From contig CAYODR010000003.1 in NCBI GenBank assembly GCA_964402895.1, positions 3,534-67,533 on the forward strand: a stretch of 64,000 bases of DNA, in the 5' to 3' direction. Under the pieces are notes generated by a model. It saw nothing but the letters and a program-made list of their open reading frames with translations. It was not told the origin of the DNA and made no database searches. The position numbers and the translations under genes are program-made. The stretch's first letter is position 1; each line of letters begins with the position of its first letter. The stretch is from an uncultured Candidatus Saccharibacteria bacterium (lineage in GTDB: Bacteria; Patescibacteriota; Minisyncoccia; Phycocordibacterales; UBA9973). Shown piece after piece: positions 2,334-63,561 of this stretch.

Positions 2334-3035
2334 TTAATAATCCCCTCCAACAAAAATGTTTACATCATTTTGCCCTATTGGTTCATACCAATTAACTCTT
2401 AATCCATAAGAGCCTCCTGGTGCACAACCAAACTCATCGGGTGTAATTATGTATGGATCATTAAAATTAAAAGATGGTGGAAAAGTGATTGTTTCTGTTA
2501 AACCTGTTCCGCCCCATGAATTCATTGGTATTATGGTTACATTTGCTACTATTGGCGATAACCCTCTACCTATAGATTTTTGATAAGTATCACTATCAGT
2601 ATATACTCCTATATTACATCTTACATAATTAGGCATTCCTGTACCATCTTCTGATGCAAGTAATGTATAGTATAGATTCGTTTGGTCATATGAATATGAG
2701 AAGCTGGCATTGTATGTTCCCGGAGTAGGTTGAGCAGTTCCAATACGAGCAGAACGCGTAATATTATTTATTAAATTATCAAAACTTGCTGATCCAGCAT
2801 TTGCTGAACCTGAGGCAGATGCAACAGTATGTGCCGCTGAGCCTAAATTTAATGTAATATCAGCTCTAATTTCTTCTTCAGGAGTATAAAGAGATTTGTT
2901 TAAATTAGCCGTTAAATACACTACACCTGTATCTGTTGATATATTGATAGTCTGTCCTGAAGCTTGGGTATTTTTAATCCCAATAAAACTTAAAAAGATA
3001 AATAGTGTAGATATGAAGATGATTTTATTTTTCAT
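2334..3035 (-). CDS. hypothetical secreted protein
   Basis: signal peptide MKNKIIFISTLFIFLSFIGIKNTQA; Ser/Gly/Asn-rich; no known domain seen. Confidence 0.5.
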   Translation of the reverse strand: MKNKIIFISTLFIFLSFIGIKNTQASGQTINISTDTGVVYLTANLNKSLYTPEEEIRADITLNLGSAAHTVASASGSANAGSASFDNLINNITRSARIGTAQPTPGTYNASFSYSYDQTNLYYTLLASEDGTGMPNYVRCNIGVYTDSDTYQKSIGRGLSPIVANVTIIPMNSWGGTGLTETITFPPSFNFNDPYIITPDEFGCAPGGSYGLRVNWYEPIGQNDVNIFVGGDY

Positions 3036-11661: not shown

Positions 11662-11934
11662 ATGAATAAACAAGCACTTGTTGAACTTATCCACGGCAAA
11701 ATCGGAGGTACAAAAGTACAATCTGAAGAAGTAATGGAAAGTCTTATCGACGCAATCGTAAGCACACTTAAAAAAGGAGAAGAAGTTTCTATCGCAGGAC
11801 TTGGTATCTTTTCAGTTAAAGATCGTGCAGCTCGTACTGCTCGCAACCCAAAAACAGGCGAAACAGTAAAAGTAGCAGCGACACGCGTTCCAAAATTCCG
11901 TGCAGCAAAAGCACTAAAAGATGCTGTAAAATAA
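11662..11934 (+). CDS. hup: DNA-binding protein HU
   Basis: 90 aa; GLGIFSVKDRAARTARNPKTGETVKV arm motif of the HU/IHF family. Confidence 0.9.
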   Translation: MNKQALVELIHGKIGGTKVQSEEVMESLIDAIVSTLKKGEEVSIAGLGIFSVKDRAARTARNPKTGETVKVAATRVPKFRAAKALKDAVK

Positions 11935-11990
11935 AACCCAAAACAAAAACACGCAAGTTTTATCTTGCGTGTTTTTGTTTTGGGTTTTAT
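11934..11990 (+). terminator. long-stem rho-independent terminator after hup
   Basis: 23-bp stem aaacccaaaacaaaaacacgcaag/ttgcgtgtttttgttttgggttt. Confidence 0.75.
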
Positions 11991-12048
11991 TGACTTTATA
12001 TATATTTTGTATATATTAGTAAACAGTATGTACCTAAATAATTAAATT

Positions 12049-18501: not shown

Positions 18502-19137
18502 ATGAAACATTTAATATCTTTTGACCTAGACGGTACTCTAACTACAGAGAATTCATGGTTTTTACTAAATAAAGCTATGGGTTTAACCCAAGAAGAAGAT
18601 AGTGAATTATTTAATGACTATCTATCTGGAAAGATCTCTTACGATGAATGGATGGATCTTATCATTTCTATTTATAAAAATAAGAAAGGGGACTTATCAA
18701 AAGATCAAGTAGATCAAATAGCAAATTCTATAAATATCCGAGAAGGAGCTTTTGAAGTGGTTGAAAAACTCAAATCTATGGGTCATGAAGTGATTATAAT
18801 ATCTGGCTCTGTAGATACAATCTGTAATCAAATAGCTCAAAAACTAAACATAGATACATATCTAACTGCATCACAATTAGTTTTTAATAATGAAAACCAA
18901 ATTACAGACATTGAAACAATGGGGGACGAAAGATCCGCAAAAATGAAACTCTTGAAAAACTATTGTGACCAAAAGGGCTACACGCTAGATATGGTGATAG
19001 CCATAGGAGATGGTGGAAATGATTTAGAAATATTTGAAAATGTTAAAGGTATCTTAATAGGAGAAAATACTGAACTTTCAAATGTTGCATGGAAGAAAGT
19101 GTCTAAACTATCTGAGATACCAGATCTTATGGAATAA
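18502..19137 (+). CDS. HAD-superfamily hydrolase (phosphoserine phosphatase-like, subfamily IB)
   Basis: motif I FDLDGTL, motif IV IGDGGNDLEIF. Confidence 0.75.
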   Translation: MKHLISFDLDGTLTTENSWFLLNKAMGLTQEEDSELFNDYLSGKISYDEWMDLIISIYKNKKGDLSKDQVDQIANSINIREGAFEVVEKLKSMGHEVIIISGSVDTICNQIAQKLNIDTYLTASQLVFNNENQITDIETMGDERSAKMKLLKNYCDQKGYTLDMVIAIGDGGNDLEIFENVKGILIGENTELSNVAWKKVSKLSEIPDLME

Positions 19138-19181
19138 ATTCAAAAAAAATAAACCGCCTATTTTCATAGTCGGTTCAATGT

Positions 19182-19213
19182 GGACGATTTTAATATTAGG
19201 CTCGTCCGTTTTC
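19182..19213 (+). terminator. terminator after the HAD gene
   Basis: ggacga...tcgtcc hairpin followed by a T-run. Confidence 0.5.
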
Positions 19214-19225
19214 CTTTTTCCTTTT

Positions 19226-19462
19226 TTAAAGGAACATTAACCATCCTCCAAATATGGTAATTAATCCTGACCATATAGCAATTGCTCCTGATTTTAAACT
19301 ACTTGCTCTGTTATCTGATAAAGAGAAAAGCAGTATTAGTAGTGCTCCAGATATCAATGCTAATCCACACCAGTGAATATCTTTTGTCTGGAACATCATT
19401 ACAAGTGCAATAGAGAACAACAGTGTTGTAATGGCTTGGGGAATAAAAAAGAAATTTTTCAT
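19226..19462 (-). CDS. small two-TM membrane protein (78 aa)
   Basis: two hydrophobic helices; its start codon lies 5 nt downstream of a 19-bp hairpin and about 120 nt downstream of the hammerhead motif on the same strand. Confidence 0.45.
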   Translation of the reverse strand: MKNFFFIPQAITTLLFSIALVMMFQTKDIHWCGLALISGALLILLFSLSDNRASSLKSGAIAIWSGLITIFGGWLMFL

Positions 19463-19468
19463 ATTTTT

Positions 19469-19521
19469 AATTTAATTGGTTACTTGAATATCCATAAGAA
19501 ACTCAAGTAACCAATTAAATT
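19469..19521 (-). other. perfect 19-bp stem-loop (15-nt loop) immediately 5' of the start codon at 19462
   Basis: ttaattggttacttga ... tcaagtaaccaattaa perfect inverted repeat, extendable by 3 bp. Confidence 0.7.
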
Positions 19522-19537
19522 TATTTAAAAGAACAAT

Positions 19538-19586
19538 CTGTTTCGTCCTTTTGGACTCATCAGTACGAATACACATTCGTATACAG
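19538..19586 (-). ncRNA. hammerhead ribozyme motif (type III topology)
   Basis: minus strand reads CUGU-A / UACGAAU-GUGU-AUUCGUA / CUGAUGA / GUCC-AAAA-GGAC / GAA / ACAG. The core C3-A9, G10.1-C11.1, G12A13A14 and A15.1-U16.1 are all canonical, with a GUA cleavage triplet, a 7-bp stem I, 4-bp stem II and 4-bp stem III. Confidence 0.7.
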
Positions 19587-19821
19587 TGTGGACCTATTAC
19601 TAGATCCACTGACATCCCACATTTTTGTTAACCACCAATGCGAGGACAGTTATGTTTTTACACAACGGAATGCCATATATAGCGAAACACTTATTTTGAG
19701 ACATTGTTTCAGAGATGTCTTTCACTTTTTCAGTGTATGTATGCTTCACAGCAGACATCACTTACTTTCTGTTGCCAACCGGCTGTTCGTGCTATTGAAC
19801 AGTGTGAGACCGGTCCGAACG

Positions 19822-20865
19822 TCATTTGTCATAATGCCATGCTGCATCAAACACTGGAATCAGAAATTGTTTGTTAGACAATCCTTTTTTCCGTGCCATG
19901 GTCACCGCTACTGCAAATCCTGCCTTTCCTGTTCTCCCAAACTCACTCAACGCTTCGTGGTGAAAGTCATCCCATTTAGCAACCCATTCACTTTTATCTG
20001 TCGGTTTGAAGCCGACAGCTTTCATGAAAGTTTGATCAATGTGATTACTTGTTACCAAAGCCACTGTATCAAGATGAGGTATTGAAGCCTCAAGAGCGGG
20101 GAACGGAAACATTGGATTTGCATATGTAGTGCCAGGTAAATCATGTCTTGCAATAACAGAAGGGTCTTCTATACCAAATACTCTTTGATACTTGCCGGGG
20201 AATCTCTTCCGATAGGCAAGAGCAGATGATACTGCTTCAAATCCCACAATTGTTATTCCAGGAAGCAATGATTTAAACTCTGTTCCCATGGAGAGCGTTG
20301 TTGTGCCGTTGCCTACGGGGGCAACTAAAATATCTGGTGTGATATTAGCATCAACAATCTCTTTTGCGAAAGGGCGAAATGCATCGATTGCAACTTCGTT
20401 AATACAATCCCCGCGTCCAGTAATATCACCCATCACGTGATTTATATACTTGGTACCGCGGTGTTCGGCGAGGAATCGCTTGATGAACATTGGAAAGCCA
20501 TTAACGTATGCTTCGGCAGGGGTGAGGTGTAGCTCAGCACCGGCCTTTTCGATTGCGGTTTCGCGTGCCCTTTCACCGCCAGCAGGTACAGCTATCTTGA
20601 TTGGGTAACCAAGGGCTGTTGCAATTGCGGCGGCTGCACGTCCTCCTGAGCCGGAAGTAGTTTCAAGCAGTGTATCACCAGGTTTAATAATGCCTAAGCA
20701 TTCTTTCTGATAAATAAGCTGTGAAAATATCCTAGCATAATGACATTCTCCGTAAGGTAATTTATATTCCATCTTGAAATGGTATATGTTTCCCTCAAAC
20801 TCAATTGTTTTAATTGGTGAGTTTTTAACGGCATCCAAAATTTGGTTGTAAAGAGCTGTTCTCAT
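19822..20865 (-). CDS. PALP-fold (tryptophan-synthase-beta/cysteine-synthase-like) protein in a GC-richer island
   Basis: TSGSGGRAAAAIATALGYPIKIAVPAG and VAPVGNGTTTLSMG align by eye with CysK-type fold II PLP enzymes. The expected Schiff-base Lys position reads GECHYAR (Lys apparently absent). GC content is visibly above the surroundings. Confidence 0.6.
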   Translation of the reverse strand: MRTALYNQILDAVKNSPIKTIEFEGNIYHFKMEYKLPYGECHYARIFSQLIYQKECLGIIKPGDTLLETTSGSGGRAAAAIATALGYPIKIAVPAGGERARETAIEKAGAELHLTPAEAYVNGFPMFIKRFLAEHRGTKYINHVMGDITGRGDCINEVAIDAFRPFAKEIVDANITPDILVAPVGNGTTTLSMGTEFKSLLPGITIVGFEAVSSALAYRKRFPGKYQRVFGIEDPSVIARHDLPGTTYANPMFPFPALEASIPHLDTVALVTSNHIDQTFMKAVGFKPTDKSEWVAKWDDFHHEALSEFGRTGKAGFAVAVTMARKKGLSNKQFLIPVFDAAWHYDK

Positions 20866-20930
20866 AATATGGGTGAGTGGGGGTTTATGCACTCGGCCGA
20901 GATGCACAAACGACTCACCTCACATCAATC
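20866..20930 (-). promoter_or_regulatory. GC-rich nested-hairpin leader upstream of the PALP gene
   Basis: ggtgagt...actcacc outer stem enclosing a tgcaNctcggccgagNtgca palindrome. Confidence 0.35.
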
Positions 20931-21070
20931 ATCTGACAACAGTATAGCTTGTTTGTAAAGGATTGTCAATATACAATGAAATAATATATTGTAAATAGCA
21001 ATAAAAACATTGTAAAATAAGAATAAAAAAGTGTTGATAAATCTTCAACAACATGATACAATTTTAATAT

Positions 21071-21838
21071 ATGATTGAAGAAATACTTAAAGAATTAAAC
21101 TTTGGGGAAAAAGAAATAGCTATATATATCTGCGTACTTGAGCACGGTAAATTGTCTGCTGCTACACTTTCAAGAATTACAAAAATCAACAGAACAACTG
21201 TTTATAGTGTGACTAAAGAGCTTATAAATAAAGGAGTTATCACGGAAGATATTGGGGGATCAAATAGATACTATACAGCACTACCACCAGAAGAACTTCG
21301 TAATTTGCATAATAAAAAACAAAAAGAACTAGAAAAAGAAGGTTTTTTAGTAGAAGAAGCTATTAAAAAACTTATAAATATACCTAAAAATAAACATTAT
21401 TCTGTACCAAAAATAGTTTTTACCGAAGAAAGAAATCTAAATGAAGTTCTTTATAAAAAACTTCCTATCTGGATAAAAAGTGCTGAAGGAAAAGACCAAA
21501 ACTGGTGGGGATTCCAAGATTCTTCTTTTATTGAAAGTCACAAAGAATGGTTTAAATACCATTGGGAGATTTTTCCTGAAAATTATGGAACAAGACTTTT
21601 CACTAATGAAAAAACTCCTGAAAAGGATTTTGCTCAAGAAATAAACAAGCAAGATATACGAAAAATTAAATACTGGGATAAATCAAAAGAATTTACAGCT
21701 ACGCATGCAGTCCTTGGTGACTATGTACTTTTTTGTGTAACAAGACAGCATCCTTATTATTTAGTAGAAATTCATGATGCTGTGATGGCAGAAAATATGA
21801 GGCAAATGTTTAAAGCTATGTGGGAAGAACTATCCTAA
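21071..21838 (+). CDS. TrmB-like transcriptional regulator
   Basis: N-terminal HTH LNFGEKEIAIYICVLEHGKLSAATLSRITKINRTTVYSVTKELINKGVI resembles the TrmB family. Confidence 0.55.
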   Translation: MIEEILKELNFGEKEIAIYICVLEHGKLSAATLSRITKINRTTVYSVTKELINKGVITEDIGGSNRYYTALPPEELRNLHNKKQKELEKEGFLVEEAIKKLINIPKNKHYSVPKIVFTEERNLNEVLYKKLPIWIKSAEGKDQNWWGFQDSSFIESHKEWFKYHWEIFPENYGTRLFTNEKTPEKDFAQEINKQDIRKIKYWDKSKEFTATHAVLGDYVLFCVTRQHPYYLVEIHDAVMAENMRQMFKAMWEELS

Positions 21839-24325: not shown

Positions 24326-24586
24326 ATGTTAACACCGAAGAAAAAATTACCAATAATCAAAAAATATCAATTGCACGCTACTGACACAGGTAGCAAAAAA
24401 GTACAAATTGCAGTACTTACAAAAAAAATTGATGTTTTGGCTGGACACCTCAAAAAACATAAAGGTGACAATCACTCAAGAAGAGGTCTGATCAAAATGG
24501 TAGCTGACAGAAGGGGGCATCTAAAAGTTCTTGAAAAGAGCAACCCTGGTCAAGCTCAAGAAGCACTAAAAATCATCAAAGGTTAA
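24326..24586 (+). CDS. rpsO: 30S ribosomal protein S15
   Basis: GDNHSRRGLIKMVADRRGHLKVL S15 signature; the ORF opens at 24317, but the ATG at 24326 fits the -10 spacing. Confidence 0.9.
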   Translation: MLTPKKKLPIIKKYQLHATDTGSKKVQIAVLTKKIDVLAGHLKKHKGDNHSRRGLIKMVADRRGHLKVLEKSNPGQAQEALKIIKG

Positions 24587-24590
24587 ATTT

Positions 24591-24618
24591 AAAACACTGC
24601 ACTAACTGCAGTGTTTTA
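24591..24618 (+). terminator. terminator after rpsO
   Basis: cactgca/tgcagtg stem followed by a T-run. Confidence 0.6.
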
Positions 24619-24669
24619 AATTTTTAATGTATAATATGTACAGTACTATTTTAAATATAAAAAATTAAA

Positions 24670-36926: not shown

Positions 36927-39900
36927 GTGAGTACGACTCTGTCTAAATTTATAAAAAACACAAAAAGTATTTTATCTATAATACTTTTTGTGTTTTTGTT
37001 TTTTGTTTTTAATGGAGACCATGCACAAGCCCAAACACCAGATGAAATAAACTCATTTGAAAACGCATATTTTAGGTATTTAAATCTTTTTACAAATGAT
37101 AGTGGTTTAACACATAAGTCTTTTGAAAAAAATACCGAAAATAATAAATTTAATGGTATTTTATTTGATATTCAAATAAATTTAAATACTGAAATAGATA
37201 CAGCAGAAAATTTATGGAAATATGTAGACGAAGATTATTCGGTTATAAATTCAAACTCTGGAGATGAAGTATTTGTAATTAGACTTTGTGATAATGAAAA
37301 TAAAAATAATTGCTGGATAAACACCGTTTTAAATCAACCCTTTGGCCCAGATCCAATAACTGGAACTAATTATACCCACAATCATGGTGTTATATATCGA
37401 AAAGCCTTATCTGGAGGTAATACTAATTTTTTTGAAAAACAAAAATTAATAAATTTACTTACTTTCAACACTGAAGAATCAAAAAAACCTGCAAGGGGTG
37501 ATTTGTTTACTTTTAAAAAGGGGAGTGGAAATAATGGTGAACTATCTTCTTTTAATGATATAGATTTTAAAAACTTAGACTCTGTAGAAGCGTCTCTATG
37601 GTATTGTGCAGAGAATTCTCTCGGGGTTGATTCTAAATCGATTTATTCTGGAACTTCCTTTAGTGATAGAATCGGGAAGTTTGATGACCTGTGTGATGGA
37701 TACACATTCTTTAAAATTGGTAATAGTATAAACATATCTATCCCAGATGAGGGTACATATACTCCTCCGGTCCTTGACGAAAGAACTCCTGGATCAGAAA
37801 GAGATATCCAAGAACCCTCAGAAAATAATTTACCAGTTTGCGATATATCTTTAGCTGGAAATTCAAAGGTTATAGGTTGTATTGCTCGTATTGTTTATTA
37901 TGGATTTTATATACCAACCTCATGGCTAGCGGGTCTTTTTGGTATGATCTTTGATTTCTTCATAGGATATTCTGTAGACGATGCATCATATCGATATGAT
38001 TTTGTGGTCAAGGGGTGGAGAATAGTGAGAGATATTTCAAATATTGCTTTTATCATCATTCTTTTATACACCGGAATAAAAGCGGTATTTAATACTGGTG
38101 GATCTGCCGGAAGTGATATGCGTAGAATAGTACCAAACCTTATTATCAATGCTTTAATAATCAACTTTAGTCTTTTTGCAACTCGTACAGTGATAGACGC
38201 ATCAAATATTGGTACTAGGGTCTTTTATAGTCGAATGATTGTGTGTGATGGAGAATGTATAAATACAGGTTCTGGTATCCCGGCTAATATAAAAAGGGGG
38301 TTGGGTGGTTATTGGCCTCTCTCAGAAAAAATAACCAGTACTTTTGATCCACAAAAACTATTTAGTCCTAGTATACTAAGCCCGGAAGGACAAAAAACAA
38401 ATACTTCTGAAGACTTATTTAGATCAACTGGTGGAGGAAGAACGATTAGAGATGGGGCCAACAATCCTGGTTTTAATAAAAATAGTGATGAATATGCAGG
38501 TTACTATACACTGGTCAGCTTGCTATCTGGCTTAATCATGCTTGCAATAGCCGTGATGTTTTTCAAAACAGCATTTCTCTTTGTGGGAAGAGTGGTTGGG
38601 CTATATGTACTTATGATATTCTCTCCAATAGCATTTCTTACTCGTAGTATGGGTAAGACATTTAATATAAAAAAGTTTAATTGGACAGAATGGCTTAAAG
38701 AGCTCACAAGCTATGCACTGCTTGCACCTATTTTTACATTTTTCCTATATATCATCTATTCATTCTTTGAATCAGGATTAGTAAAGCAAATGGGGCTTAA
38801 AGAGCAGGGTGAATCATTCTTTGAAATACTTATAAGTATTGTTTTGCCGATGCTTGTAATCTTCATGCTTATTAAATACGCTCAAAAAATAGCAGAAGAG
38901 CATTCAGGTGAAATTGGAAAAATGGTGCAAAGCTTTGCAGAAAAGACTATTGGTGGGGTTGGAGTGGTTGCAGGAGGAGCTGTAGGACTTGCTGCAGGAG
39001 GAGCGGCACTTCTAGGAACAAGGCTCGGATCTAGAGTAGTAGGAAGACTTGCAAATAAAGCGGGCCTGACAGATTGGGCAGCAGAAAATGCAAGTACAAA
39101 CAGATTCGCTAGAAGTTTAAACAGTGGTATTCGTAGTACTCAAACAGGTTCTTGGGATGTTCGAAATACTTGGCTTGGTAAAAATACAGGTGCCGGAATC
39201 AACAGTATGATAAATATGACTAATCGTGCCGGACTAACAAATATAGACAATATAAGAGACAATATTTCTGGCAGACTTGGTCTTGGTGCTAAAGATTTTG
39301 CGGGTGGAGCTATTGCTCTTCAAAAGAAGGCTGATGAAAGAAGAGAGAAAGCTCTAAATAAAAAATTTAACGACAATAGCTTCGCTCACTTAACTGATGA
39401 ACAAGCTAAAGAGGTTTGGGTAAAAATAAAAGAAGAAAAAACAAAAACTCAACTTTCTGGCACTGAAGAAAAATTAATAGATAAACATATTGATTCAACT
39501 CTTAAAACCAACAATACATACTATCAAAAAGCTATTGAAAATATAGAATTTCAAAAAGAACAAGCTAAAATACTAGAAAATGCTATAACAAAGTCTCTAG
39601 AACAGCTTAAAGATAATAATTTGGATATAAATACTAGAAAAACAATAGAAAATCAAATGTCTTTCAATGTAAATGAATTGCAAAAATCCAAAAATGAGCT
39701 TGAAAGACTAGAAAAAGTAAGAGGTAATATTTTTGATACTCGAAAAAATAATAGTACATATGTATCAGATATTAAAAACTCTAAAGAATTCAAAGATGAA
39801 TTTGAAAAAGAAAAGAAAAATATAGAAAAAGATATAGACAAGAAATATGGTGAAGTTAAAAAGACAAAGGATCTTGTAATGGCTGCGAAAATGGATTATA

Positions 39901-60863: not shown

Positions 60864-61082
60864 ATGTCTGATGACAATGAATTTGGTGAGGTAACAGAAA
60901 TCACAGAAGATGAACTTGGTGGGGATATAAACCAAGTTATGGAGGATGAAGATGCCGATGTTTTAGAAGATGGACTTGAAGGAGAGCTTTCAGAAGATGA
61001 ATATCAAGATGAAGAAGATCCTTATGCGGAAATCGAGGAAATTCTAGACCCAAACGATACAGACCCTTGGGATGATAGATAA
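60864..61082 (+). CDS. small highly acidic protein (72 aa, about 45% D/E)
   Basis: MSDDNEFGEVTEITEDELGGD...; followed by a strong terminator. Confidence 0.45.
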   Translation: MSDDNEFGEVTEITEDELGGDINQVMEDEDADVLEDGLEGELSEDEYQDEEDPYAEIEEILDPNDTDPWDDR

Positions 61083-61085
61083 ATT

Positions 61086-61123
61086 AAAACCCTTAACTAC
61101 TCGTTAAGGGTTTTAATTTTTTT
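61086..61123. terminator. bidirectional terminator between the acidic-protein gene and pilB
   Basis: aaaacccttaac/gttaagggtttt 12-bp stem followed by a T-run. Confidence 0.7.
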
Positions 61124-62890: not shown

Positions 62891-62990
62891 TATATGTTAA
62901 CATATAGATAAGTTAGATCTTTGAAAAAGATTTTAAAGGTTATCAGAAAATCTTATTTTGAAATAGGGATTTCCGATAACCTTTAAAATT
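62891..62990. promoter_or_regulatory. palindromes in the divergent pilB / 63004 intergenic region
   Basis: perfect 16-bp palindrome tatatgttaacatata (62891-62906); 16-bp IR ttttaaaggttatcag / ccgataacctttaaaa separated by about 29 nt (62927-62990). Confidence 0.4.
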
Positions 62991-63003
62991 AAATATAAAA
63001 AAT

Positions 63004-63561
63004 ATGAAAAAGTTAATTTTTATTCTCGCGTTGATTGTTGTTGGGACATCTGCAAGCGCACAGAAGTTTGCGAAAAGACCTAAGGCAAACGATTTGCCAA
63101 AAACAAAGGAGGACCTGATGCATGTCTTTCATATCTTTCCGCAAGATAATGCGGAGTATGTATGGAAACATGCAAAAAAAGGAGTTTTAACAGAGCTTCC
63201 AAGTACTTTATATGAAGTACTTGTGCCAGTAGATTCTACTGGCAGACTTGCTTTTGTTGATTCGGAGTTACATCAACCTAGAAGACAAGATAGTGTCTTG
63301 TACTTCACCACGGCAGATGGGGAGACGATTATCTTTAAAAATCTGACAACGAAGTTATTTTGTCGTCCGGTTCTTATTGAAGAATCTGAGCGTCAGTTTA
63401 GCGGGAATTTTATTCCTGCTCAGCCAAGGGCTCAACCTCAACCACAGCCTAGGGTTGTACATACACAACCGCAACCACAAGCTCGTCCCGTTTTTAGGGA
63501 TGATGTTTATGGCTATGACTCTGGTTATAGCTCTAGGATTATTATTCCTAGGTGGCGCTAG
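63004..63561 (+). CDS. secreted hypothetical protein with PQ-rich C-terminal segment
   Basis: signal peptide MKKLIFILALIVVGTSASA; AQPRAQPQPQPRVVHTQPQPQARP. Confidence 0.5.
   Translation: MKKLIFILALIVVGTSASAQKFAKRPKANDLPKTKEDLMHVFHIFPQDNAEYVWKHAKKGVLTELPSTLYEVLVPVDSTGRLAFVDSELHQPRRQDSVLYFTTADGETIIFKNLTTKLFCRPVLIEESERQFSGNFIPAQPRAQPQPQPRVVHTQPQPQARPVFRDDVYGYDSGYSSRIIIPRWR

Follow-up and report, generated by a model that had tools for sequence, protein, structure and literature searches.

In the 64,000-nucleotide stretch of contig CAYODR010000003.1 from an uncultured Candidatus Saccharibacteria bacterium (hereafter the window; all coordinates are positions within it) a long hairpin stands directly before the start codon of a 78-codon open reading frame (ORF) and shortly 3' of a hammerhead ribozyme motif, and the whole unit, from a gene for a pyridoxal phosphate (PLP)-dependent enzyme to the small ORF, is read on the minus strand. 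The hairpin is best characterized as a conserved cis-acting leader stem-loop of this Patescibacteria-like clade, while the ribozyme is regarded as an acquired cistron separator placed in a layout similar to that of the engineered insulator RiboJ. The probability of this reading is estimated at about 0.55, where confidence is high for the identity of the hairpin and low for its mechanism.

The hairpin (19469..19521, minus strand) consists of arms 19469-19487 and 19503-19521, which are complementary at 19 of 19 positions and enclose a 15-nucleotide (nt) loop, exactly as had been proposed in an earlier note made from the letters of the window. Gapless extension of the arms leads to 24 nt at 92% complementarity, and RNAfold gives 21 contiguous pairs with a 3-bp apical stem above them; the G+C content of the stem is only about 21% (4 G-C of 19 pairs). 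The folding energy of the 161-nt hairpin region is -43.3 kcal/mol in comparison with -23.6 +/- 3.5 kcal/mol for dinucleotide shuffles (z = -5.7), and in thermodynamic modelling the probability of the arms being unpaired is about 0.01 with the ribozyme either cut or uncut. In 20 Markov simulations of the window the longest perfect stem was 10-13 bp, so chance is no explanation for a stem of 19 bp, and an identical sequence is present on the independent Logan contig L001 of run SRR16797981. The spacer between the hairpin and the ATG (19462-19460) is AAAAAU, which makes 6 nt and not the 5 nt stated before, and the distance from the predicted hammerhead cleavage site to the hairpin 3' of it is 60 nt instead of about 50 nt, with a gap of 13 nt between the two elements on the same strand; the neighbourhood as such, with the start codon beside the hairpin and the hammerhead upstream, was described correctly.

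A long perfect hairpin by itself is no rarity in the window, which contains 12 perfect stems of at least 15 bp including this one, most of them A-tract/T-tract bidirectional terminators. Palindromes with 15–28 bp stems of the A-tract/stem/T-tract type were observed at 11930-11991, 2275-2315, 1154-1196, 36954-36997, 61081-61119, 24585-24623, and other positions; they are apparently bidirectional terminators and far exceed the length expected by chance, since no simulated stem was longer than 13 bp. The hairpin before the small ORF is unlike them in its AU-rich stem, 15-nt loop, and lack of a U-tract, and its arm sequence has no further occurrence within the window. Readings as an integron attC site, an IS200/IS605-type end, or a miniature inverted-repeat transposable element were also considered; they were discarded in view of the single occurrence of the hairpin in the window and of its central location in the lineage-specific segment described below, away from the segment borders.

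The identity of the hairpin follows from its relatives at orthologous loci. A BLAST search among the fetched loci aligned positions 19534-19453 over 84 nt, with 78.6% identity, to the 5' leader that immediately precedes the PLP enzyme start in loci L018 and L019, the PLP protein of which is 79% identical to that of the window. The eleven outer pairs of the arms (UUAAUUGGUUA/UAACCAAUUAA) are identical in L018 and the window, and the next two pairs are changed on both sides (A-U, G-C versus C-G, U-A). The same form of hairpin, designated type B, occurs in L021 and L263, while PLP orthologues also carry a type A stem, UUUGAGUGG-c-UGAGCUCA-CCACUUAAA, or a type C stem, GUUUGUGUG..GGCC..CACAUAAAC. 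The window's own PLP leader belongs to type C and contains the bulged hairpin GUUUGUGCA-U-CUCGGCCGAG-UGCAUAAAC (20883..20911, minus strand), which ends 17 nt before the ATG at 20865. Altogether a hairpin ending 6–25 nt before the AUG is present in 19 of the 23 PLP leaders examined; among the hairpin-less leaders L003, L004, and L012 possess a GAGGAGG or GGAGG Shine-Dalgarno (SD) sequence, and L014 possesses neither. The basal 9-bp stem common to types A, B, and C is paired in 99% of the alignment cells, with double-sided changes at six of the nine pairs and a G.U pair kept in 8 of 11 distinct sequences; its covariation score was reached by none of 500 shuffles, and slid controls were only 26–49% paired.

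In the PLP-orthologue leaders L002-L021 and L262-L269 the apex of the hairpin is a perfect palindrome that is invariant within each type (GAGCUC in A, UCUAGA in B, and GGCC in C), while the stem below it covaries; this apex could be a kissing-loop or protein-recognition feature.

Further members were identified by a covariance model (R1), which was built from only four type B leaders, the window copy being a seed member (73.5 bits). Its non-seed matches, with E values from 1.5e-4 to 0.02, include six type A PLP leaders (24.9–32.6 bits), the leaders of two other genes in L010, and a second site in the window at 62925-63003 (33.2 bits, E = 1.5e-4), while on 1.46 Mb of hammerhead-bearing phage and metagenome loci nothing significant was obtained. 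This second module (62916..63003, plus strand) comprises GAUCUUUGAAA, a 15-bp perfect hairpin (62930-62989), the A/U-rich spacer UAAAUAUAAAAAAU, and the ATG of a 185-aa ORF with a signal peptide (63004-63561). Since R1 matches unrelated host genes and is silent in the hammerhead loci, the module is, judging by this distribution of sequence matches, a host feature which stands before several unrelated genes both in leaders and between cistrons. The hairpin of the small ORF has the marks of this family, namely, a U-rich 5' strand, an A-rich 3' strand, covariation, and a same-strand AUG within 6–25 nt. It has no significant match to any cis-regulatory family of Rfam, where Alpha_RBS only was reported with 17.4 bits against a cut-off of 38. 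A looser descriptor of the hairpin family proved to be unspecific (14 matches in the window and 2–12 in simulations) and was superseded by R1. Viral contigs with the hairpin arm sequence gave 46 matches, most of which look like conserved coding stretches or unrelated phage palindromes; none of them has a convincing hammerhead upstream, and they were rejected.

The motif GUUCUUUUAAA (19524..19534, minus strand) lies between the hammerhead and the hairpin, and motifs of this type recur just 5' of other leader hairpins (62916-62926 in the window, 2574 in L018, and 3939 in L007) as well as just 3' of some phage and metagenome hammerheads (L245, L180, L174, L220, and L208). Among 76 type III hammerheads G(U/A)UCUUU(G/U)A was found within 25 nt downstream of seven, in comparison with 1 of 228 control windows.

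The significance of the SD sequence in this organism must be considered separately, since the earlier note remarked on the lack of room for it before the small ORF. An SD core (GGAG, GAGG, or AGGA at -22 to -4) precedes only 2 of 45 long window ORFs, which is below the background of 8.5%, while a TATAAT-like box ending 5–9 nt before the ATG was found in 18 of 45 genes (12 of them perfect) in comparison with 5.2% (0.5% perfect) at random positions. According to these frequencies the organism looks to make mostly leaderless mRNAs (40% of genes look leaderless) without reliance on SD pairing, and because the genome hardly uses SD sequences, the missing SD before the 78-aa ORF is uninformative. 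The three hairpin-led genes of the window, that is, the PLP gene, the 78-aa ORF, and the gene at 63004, have no start-proximal TATAAT-like box and belong to the leadered minority. The reverse generalization that all non-leaderless genes have a start-proximal hairpin is false, as a contiguous stem of at least 12 bp at 4–25 nt was found before 4 of 46 starts, one of which is a terminator. A literature search on SD usage in Patescibacteria gave nothing usable.

Upstream of the hairpin lies a type III hammerhead motif (19535..19589, minus strand; RF00008, 41.1 bits, E = 2e-7, which is significant for the 801 nt searched). Its conserved core of CUGAUGA and GAAA is complete, with CUGAUGAG at 19563-19556 and CGAAAC at 19545-19540; the cleavage triplet is GUA, and the cut is predicted between 19582 and 19581 (after A19582). 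Loops close both stem I (7 bp, loop GUGU) and stem II (GUCC-AAAA-GGAC), and stem III (ACAG/CUGU) is open. An 8-bp hairpin, GUGGAUCU-AGUAAU-AGGUCCAC (19588..19609, minus strand), abuts stem III, and ribozyme relatives from phages show this arrangement as well. The pattern CTGATGAGTCC..GGACGAAAC is generic, with at least 120 matches each in viral and metagenome collections, and these loci were kept as a comparison set. Seventy-six of the 240 listed copies with enough flank belong to type III, have stem I closed and a GUH triplet, and share the window's stem II; among these 76, many have the stem I loop of the window and a small hairpin just upstream, and the median distance to the start of the next ORF is 25 nt. 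Over the 120 nt that follow these listed relatives, perfect stems are mostly of 5-6 bp, with one of 13 bp (L180), in comparison with 19 bp in the window. Judging by these shared parts the window hammerhead belongs to a common phage and metagenome type III subfamily, while its exact stem I together with the core has no match in viral contigs. No hammerhead was found downstream of PLP orthologues, either in 15 genome loci by pattern scan or in 9 extra assemblies by eye.

In Perreault et al. study (2011, PMC3088659) hammerheads of prophages were reported to flank genes and to cleave polycistronic RNAs in vitro, one of them lying 13 nt before a start codon. The window copy resembles such intergenic phage and prophage type III hammerheads (RF00008) in the full core, the closed stems I and II and open stem III, the stem II and stem I loop matched by dozens of phage and metagenome copies, and the intergenic position between co-oriented ORFs, immediately preceded by a small hairpin and followed by the start of an ORF. 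It differs in its location, which is downstream of a metabolic gene in the genome of a candidate-phyla cell with no recognisable prophage, in its lower score and short stem III (see below), and in the position of the ORF. Owing to the interposed leader hairpin, the ORF starts 77 nt after CGAAAC (72 nt after the end of the Rfam match), while the median distance from the core is 25 nt in relatives.

The metagenome locus L180 (Ga0105054_10094762) contains at 2600-3030 a hammerhead followed by GUUCUUUGAAAA and a hairpin of 13 bp whose loop has 17 nt, and no ORF comes next; Rfam reports there a match to transfer-messenger RNA (2959-3028, 65.2 bits), so the ribozyme may here precede an RNA gene.

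The PLP transcript begins at a sigma-70-type promoter, TTGACA-17-TATACT (20941..20969, minus strand), with 11 of 12 consensus matches, which is conserved at orthologous loci, where the block TTGACAATNCTTTACAAA..TATAMT recurs. The gene itself (19822..20865, minus strand) encodes a cysteine-synthase-like enzyme (PF00291) with the likely start ATG at 20865, while the mechanical ORF extends up to a GTG at 20907, and it is followed by a conserved structured 3' untranslated region (3'UTR; 19612..19821, minus strand) common to L013, L018, L021, L264, and L269. The first minus-strand terminator downstream of the PLP promoter is AACCGACUAU-GAAA-AUAGGCGGUU followed by U8 (19140..19175, stem 19175-19152), which was read from the sequence and was missed by the consensus scan, probably because of a stem mismatch. 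Between the promoter (20969-20941) and this terminator (19175-19140) the consensus scan gave no promoter-like or terminator-like site, so the default assumption is co-transcription, and the PLP gene, the ribozyme, the hairpin, and the 78-aa ORF are likely carried by one transcript, in agreement with the earlier note, which had placed hairpin and hammerhead on the same RNA.

At the relatives that share the PLP 3'UTR an ordinary terminator comes next. In the closest of them, L269 (85.7% nucleotide identity over 1517 nt), the type C leader and the 3'UTR are as in the window, and after ...AAAAAUGUGGAG a plain terminator follows, with no ribozyme, type B hairpin, or ORF; L264 has the same arrangement of 3'UTR and plain terminator and likewise has no part of the segment. 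From the comparison of these loci, the segment of about 390 nt (19612-19226) is lineage-specific and has replaced the terminator only in the lineage of the window. A remnant of a second PLP gene was sought in 19100-19830 by tblastn with 80 PLP proteins, and nothing below E = 0.05 was obtained.

The 78-aa ORF (19226..19462, minus strand) is an orphan. The only match to it was the sequence itself in a word-indexed search of 5.8 billion clusters, in a HMMER search of 1.84 billion representatives, and in tblastn on the fetched loci, and the likeness to a 99-aa membrane ORF in L017 was rejected (BLASTP E = 3.4). The product had been described as a two-transmembrane (2TM) protein, whereas three hydrophobic stretches were found, at about residues 4–24, 31–47, and 58–78. 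A holin-like or toxin-like nature had been supposed as well; profile searches returned nothing significant, with no match in Pfam and NCBIfam, a best E of 0.051 in PHROGs (unknown function), and a best E of 0.065 in PADLOC (generic 2TM). The coding signal is ambiguous, and the homology to PLP leaders stops a few bases past the ATG. It may be a young gene or no gene at all.

According to the proposed mechanism, the leader family would be employed before start codons whose genes possess a 5' leader or are located inside an operon. The module order is, in some cases, a GWUCUUUKAAA box, then the stem with its U-rich 5' and A-rich 3' strand, a 6–25 nt A/U- or A/C-rich spacer, and the AUG. On the mRNA the stem most likely would either organise or limit SD-independent ribosome loading at the adjacent AUG or stabilise or process the transcript, and this action would be independent of any ribozyme. 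Only in the lineage of the window has the terminator behind the 3'UTR been swapped for a small hairpin, a phage-type hammerhead, a leader module, and the orphan 78-aa ORF. If the ribozyme cleaves, the PLP mRNA would end in the 8-bp hairpin and 6 further nt that terminate in a 2',3'-cyclic phosphate, and the mRNA of the small ORF would have a 5'-OH and, in this order, ribozyme scaffold, leader hairpin, and AUG.

Several observations weigh against this interpretation. The accessibility of the region from -6 to +18 is 0.476 for the native sequence and 0.444 +/- 0.038 with the 5' arm shuffled, so the stem has no measurable effect on it and a role in initiation obtains no computational support. The arms in the covariation analysis were extracted by hand and their apices were replaced by a GAAA spacer, which leans towards structure. 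The copy before the small ORF has neither the bulge nor the palindromic apex (UCUAGA, GAGCUC, or GGCC) kept by the orthologous leaders and may be a degenerate or recently remodelled copy. The per-codon score of the ORF is 0.104, below 98.9% of real-gene chunks yet above 98.5% of non-coding frames, and in view of this low score and the absence of homologues the hairpin may lead nothing translated. Finally, stem III of the hammerhead has just 4 bp, and its 41.1 bits are below the Rfam gathering score of 48.5, so that it is not reported in a gathering-threshold scan of the whole window; in nine loci with close hammerhead relatives only two copies exceed the gathering score (54.0 and 48.7 bits), and several clear phage relatives are below it.

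The position of the hairpin 13 nt from the hammerhead, on one strand and with no promoter or terminator consensus between them, led to the idea that the two are coupled, the hairpin acting as a protective 5' structure of the small-ORF mRNA after cleavage or as a cleavage-dependent translational gate; the L180 contig with its hammerhead, motif, and hairpin is the one metagenome case of similar composition. This coupling is quite unlikely. All other members of the hairpin family that were found (the PLP leaders including that of the window, the hairpin at 62930-62989, and those of two L010 genes) are without a hammerhead, the listed hammerhead relatives mostly have short downstream stems apart from the single 13-bp case, and R1 did not detect such a hairpin in their loci. 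A 5'-terminal protective structure, as supposed in the earlier note, is not possible in this geometry, because after type III cleavage the new 5' end is occupied by stems I and II of the ribozyme, behind which the hairpin comes only 60 nt later; the gate obtains no support from the predicted fold or from the AUG-region accessibility, which is 0.476 both before and after cleavage. The same note also suggested an intrinsic attenuator, and it may be added in favour of a terminator of the PLP transcript that many long perfect palindromes of the window are terminators and that relatives have a terminator at roughly this position. Such a function is very improbable, since a U-tract is missing behind the stem both on the minus strand (AAAAAUAUG) and on the plus strand (UAUUUAAAAG), the stem is AU-rich with a loop of 15 nt, the consensus scan gave no terminator in 19050-21100, and orthologues carry the hairpin between the promoter and the coding sequence of the conserved enzyme. 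An RNA thermometer or SD-occluding hairpin was rejected, as no SD is present and the AUG lies 6 nt outside the stem.

A role at the level of DNA, as a palindromic operator or cruciform for a dimeric regulator such as one of the neighbouring TrmB/MarR-family proteins, is suggested by the perfect dyad symmetry of the window copy, by the orthologous leaders that are palindromic through the apex (GAGCUC, UCUAGA, and GGCC), and by a TrmB-family gene that is paired divergently with the PLP gene both in the window and at most of the related loci for which the upstream gene was listed. Against it, the conserved G.U pair would turn into a mismatch, A.C, on the opposite strand or between duplex half-sites, and the distance between the half-sites is not constant, with 27 nt in L018 but 31 nt in the window and far smaller values in types A and C; these two facts favour sense-strand RNA pairing over a duplex-DNA operator. 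The element is also found between co-oriented ORFs and before unrelated genes, and TGTTGA-N7-TCAACA at 21050-21032 is a better operator candidate, which makes this explanation improbable. Equally doubtful is a site for a double-strand-specific RNase of the RNase III type, which would trim the leader near the AUG or set mRNA stability. Precedents of such processing are the intercistronic hairpins of phage T7 and the lambda N leader, the near-perfect type B duplexes of 20–25 bp (21–25 bp in the window and other type B copies) are of the required size class of about two helical turns (20 bp or more), and the position in leaders and between cistrons beside start codons would be suitable; but the type A and C members, with 9–12 bp and a bulge, are short for RNase III. 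Somewhat less unlikely is a non-functional by-product, in which a recent rearrangement or horizontal fragment brought a leader copy and the ribozyme behind the PLP gene, and the ORF arose by chance or de novo with no selection. This is compatible with the absence of the segment in the closest relative, with the ORF that has no homologue and a codon score between coding and non-coding, with the end of PLP-leader homology a few bases past the ATG, and with the absence of the family bulge and conserved apex in the window copy. On the other hand, the probability of a 78-codon open frame at this composition is about 0.002 per frame (an estimate from stop-codon frequencies), the perfect 19–21 bp stem and the intact 11-nt ribozyme core argue against long neutral decay, and an identical sequence exists in an independent assembly.

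The leader stem-loop with an acquired ribozyme thus remains the preferred reading, and its parts can be compared with known systems. RiboJ is composed of the sTRSV hammerhead and a 23-nt hairpin set before a ribosome-binding site (PMC8794103), and the window has the same part order, that is, a hammerhead with stem II CUGAUGAGUCC..GGACGAAAC, a hairpin a few nt later, and a start region, where cleavage would strip the upstream RNA and leave a fixed structured 5' end. Unlike RiboJ, the layout of the window is natural, its hairpin is longer (53 nt with a 19–21 bp stem), there is no SD to expose, the hairpin is a host element which exists elsewhere without a ribozyme, and modelling of the window RNA gave no insulating effect. 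As far as the data go at present, the element is interesting as a combination of parts that are each of a known kind. Bacterial 5'-leader stem-loops that act on stability or translation include the ompA and ermC stabilisers, the T7 and lambda RNase III sites, and the fourU and ROSE thermometers. The window family shares with them a stable stem-loop within ribosome-footprint distance of the AUG and is covarying; in contrast to them, the window hairpin is not 5'-terminal, sequesters neither an AUG nor an SD, has no Rfam match, and belongs to genomes without SD-led initiation.

A bolder and rather unlikely extension is that the hairpin family is a dedicated signal for SD-independent internal initiation, a "start-site marker" or standby platform in bacteria that are leaderless by default, and that the window contains a natural ribozyme-plus-hairpin insulator which turned a 3'UTR into a new cistron, with the birth of a small gene. 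If the preferred reading itself is right, SD-less and largely leaderless candidate-phyla bacteria would own a recognisable covarying RNA module before starts that are not at the 5' end, and initiation on their leadered and internal cistrons would become directly testable with compensatory mutants. The window would then be a natural counterpart of RiboJ, with a phage-type hammerhead in the place of a terminator, and a clean case for what bacterial hammerheads do to neighbouring genes, while the orphan 78-aa ORF behind a borrowed leader would be a candidate for very recent gene birth.

Some other elements were observed in the surroundings of the PLP gene. The RNA 3' of the PLP stop (19612-19821, minus strand, in the window; 5078-5260 in L013; 3701-3815 in L018; 2158-2262 in L021; 2558-2760 in L264; about 1417-1590 in L269) forms two stems with changes on both sides at 11 of 20 predicted pairs and includes the invariant single-stranded blocks UCACAC, UGGCAACAGAA, and GAAAAAGUGA, where a pseudoknot of UCAC with GUGA could form; the window, L264, and L269 possess an extra block CCUCGCAUUGGUGGUUAACAAAAAUGUGG. 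No Rfam family matches this RNA, which is a candidate for a new 3'UTR motif or small RNA. The PLP gene with this 3'UTR (19600-20900) has a G+C content of 42–47%, the rest of the window being at about 30%. The inverted repeat TGTTGA-N7-TCAACA mentioned above (minus strand) is located beside the start of the divergent TrmB-family gene, is kept in essentially all PLP loci, and is a likely operator of the TrmB-family regulator.

Beyond the small ORF, the hairpin GGACGA..UCGUCC (19182..19207), with GUUUUCCUUUUU after it on the plus strand, serves as the terminator of the convergent HAD-hydrolase gene. Its homologue in L017, L009, and L010, from which it differs by compensatory changes, is the P1 hairpin directly 3' of the PLP stop. 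A recurrent intergenic element with no Rfam match was also recognised, in which AAGGAAAACGG, the hairpin P1 (loop AGCCUA..., with compensatory changes between copies), CCACAUU, a second hairpin, and UGAUAGUG follow each other. Its copies are located at 19152-19222 (minus strand) in the window, just 3' of the PLP stop in L009 and L010, at 1780-1860 in L010, at 58-115 in L017, and at about 2870-2950 in L020, so that it lies 3' of the PLP stop in three genomes and 5' of the PLP leader in L020. In L010 a copy is placed between co-oriented ORFs just before GUUCUUCAG and a leader hairpin, which is the position occupied in the window by the hammerhead.

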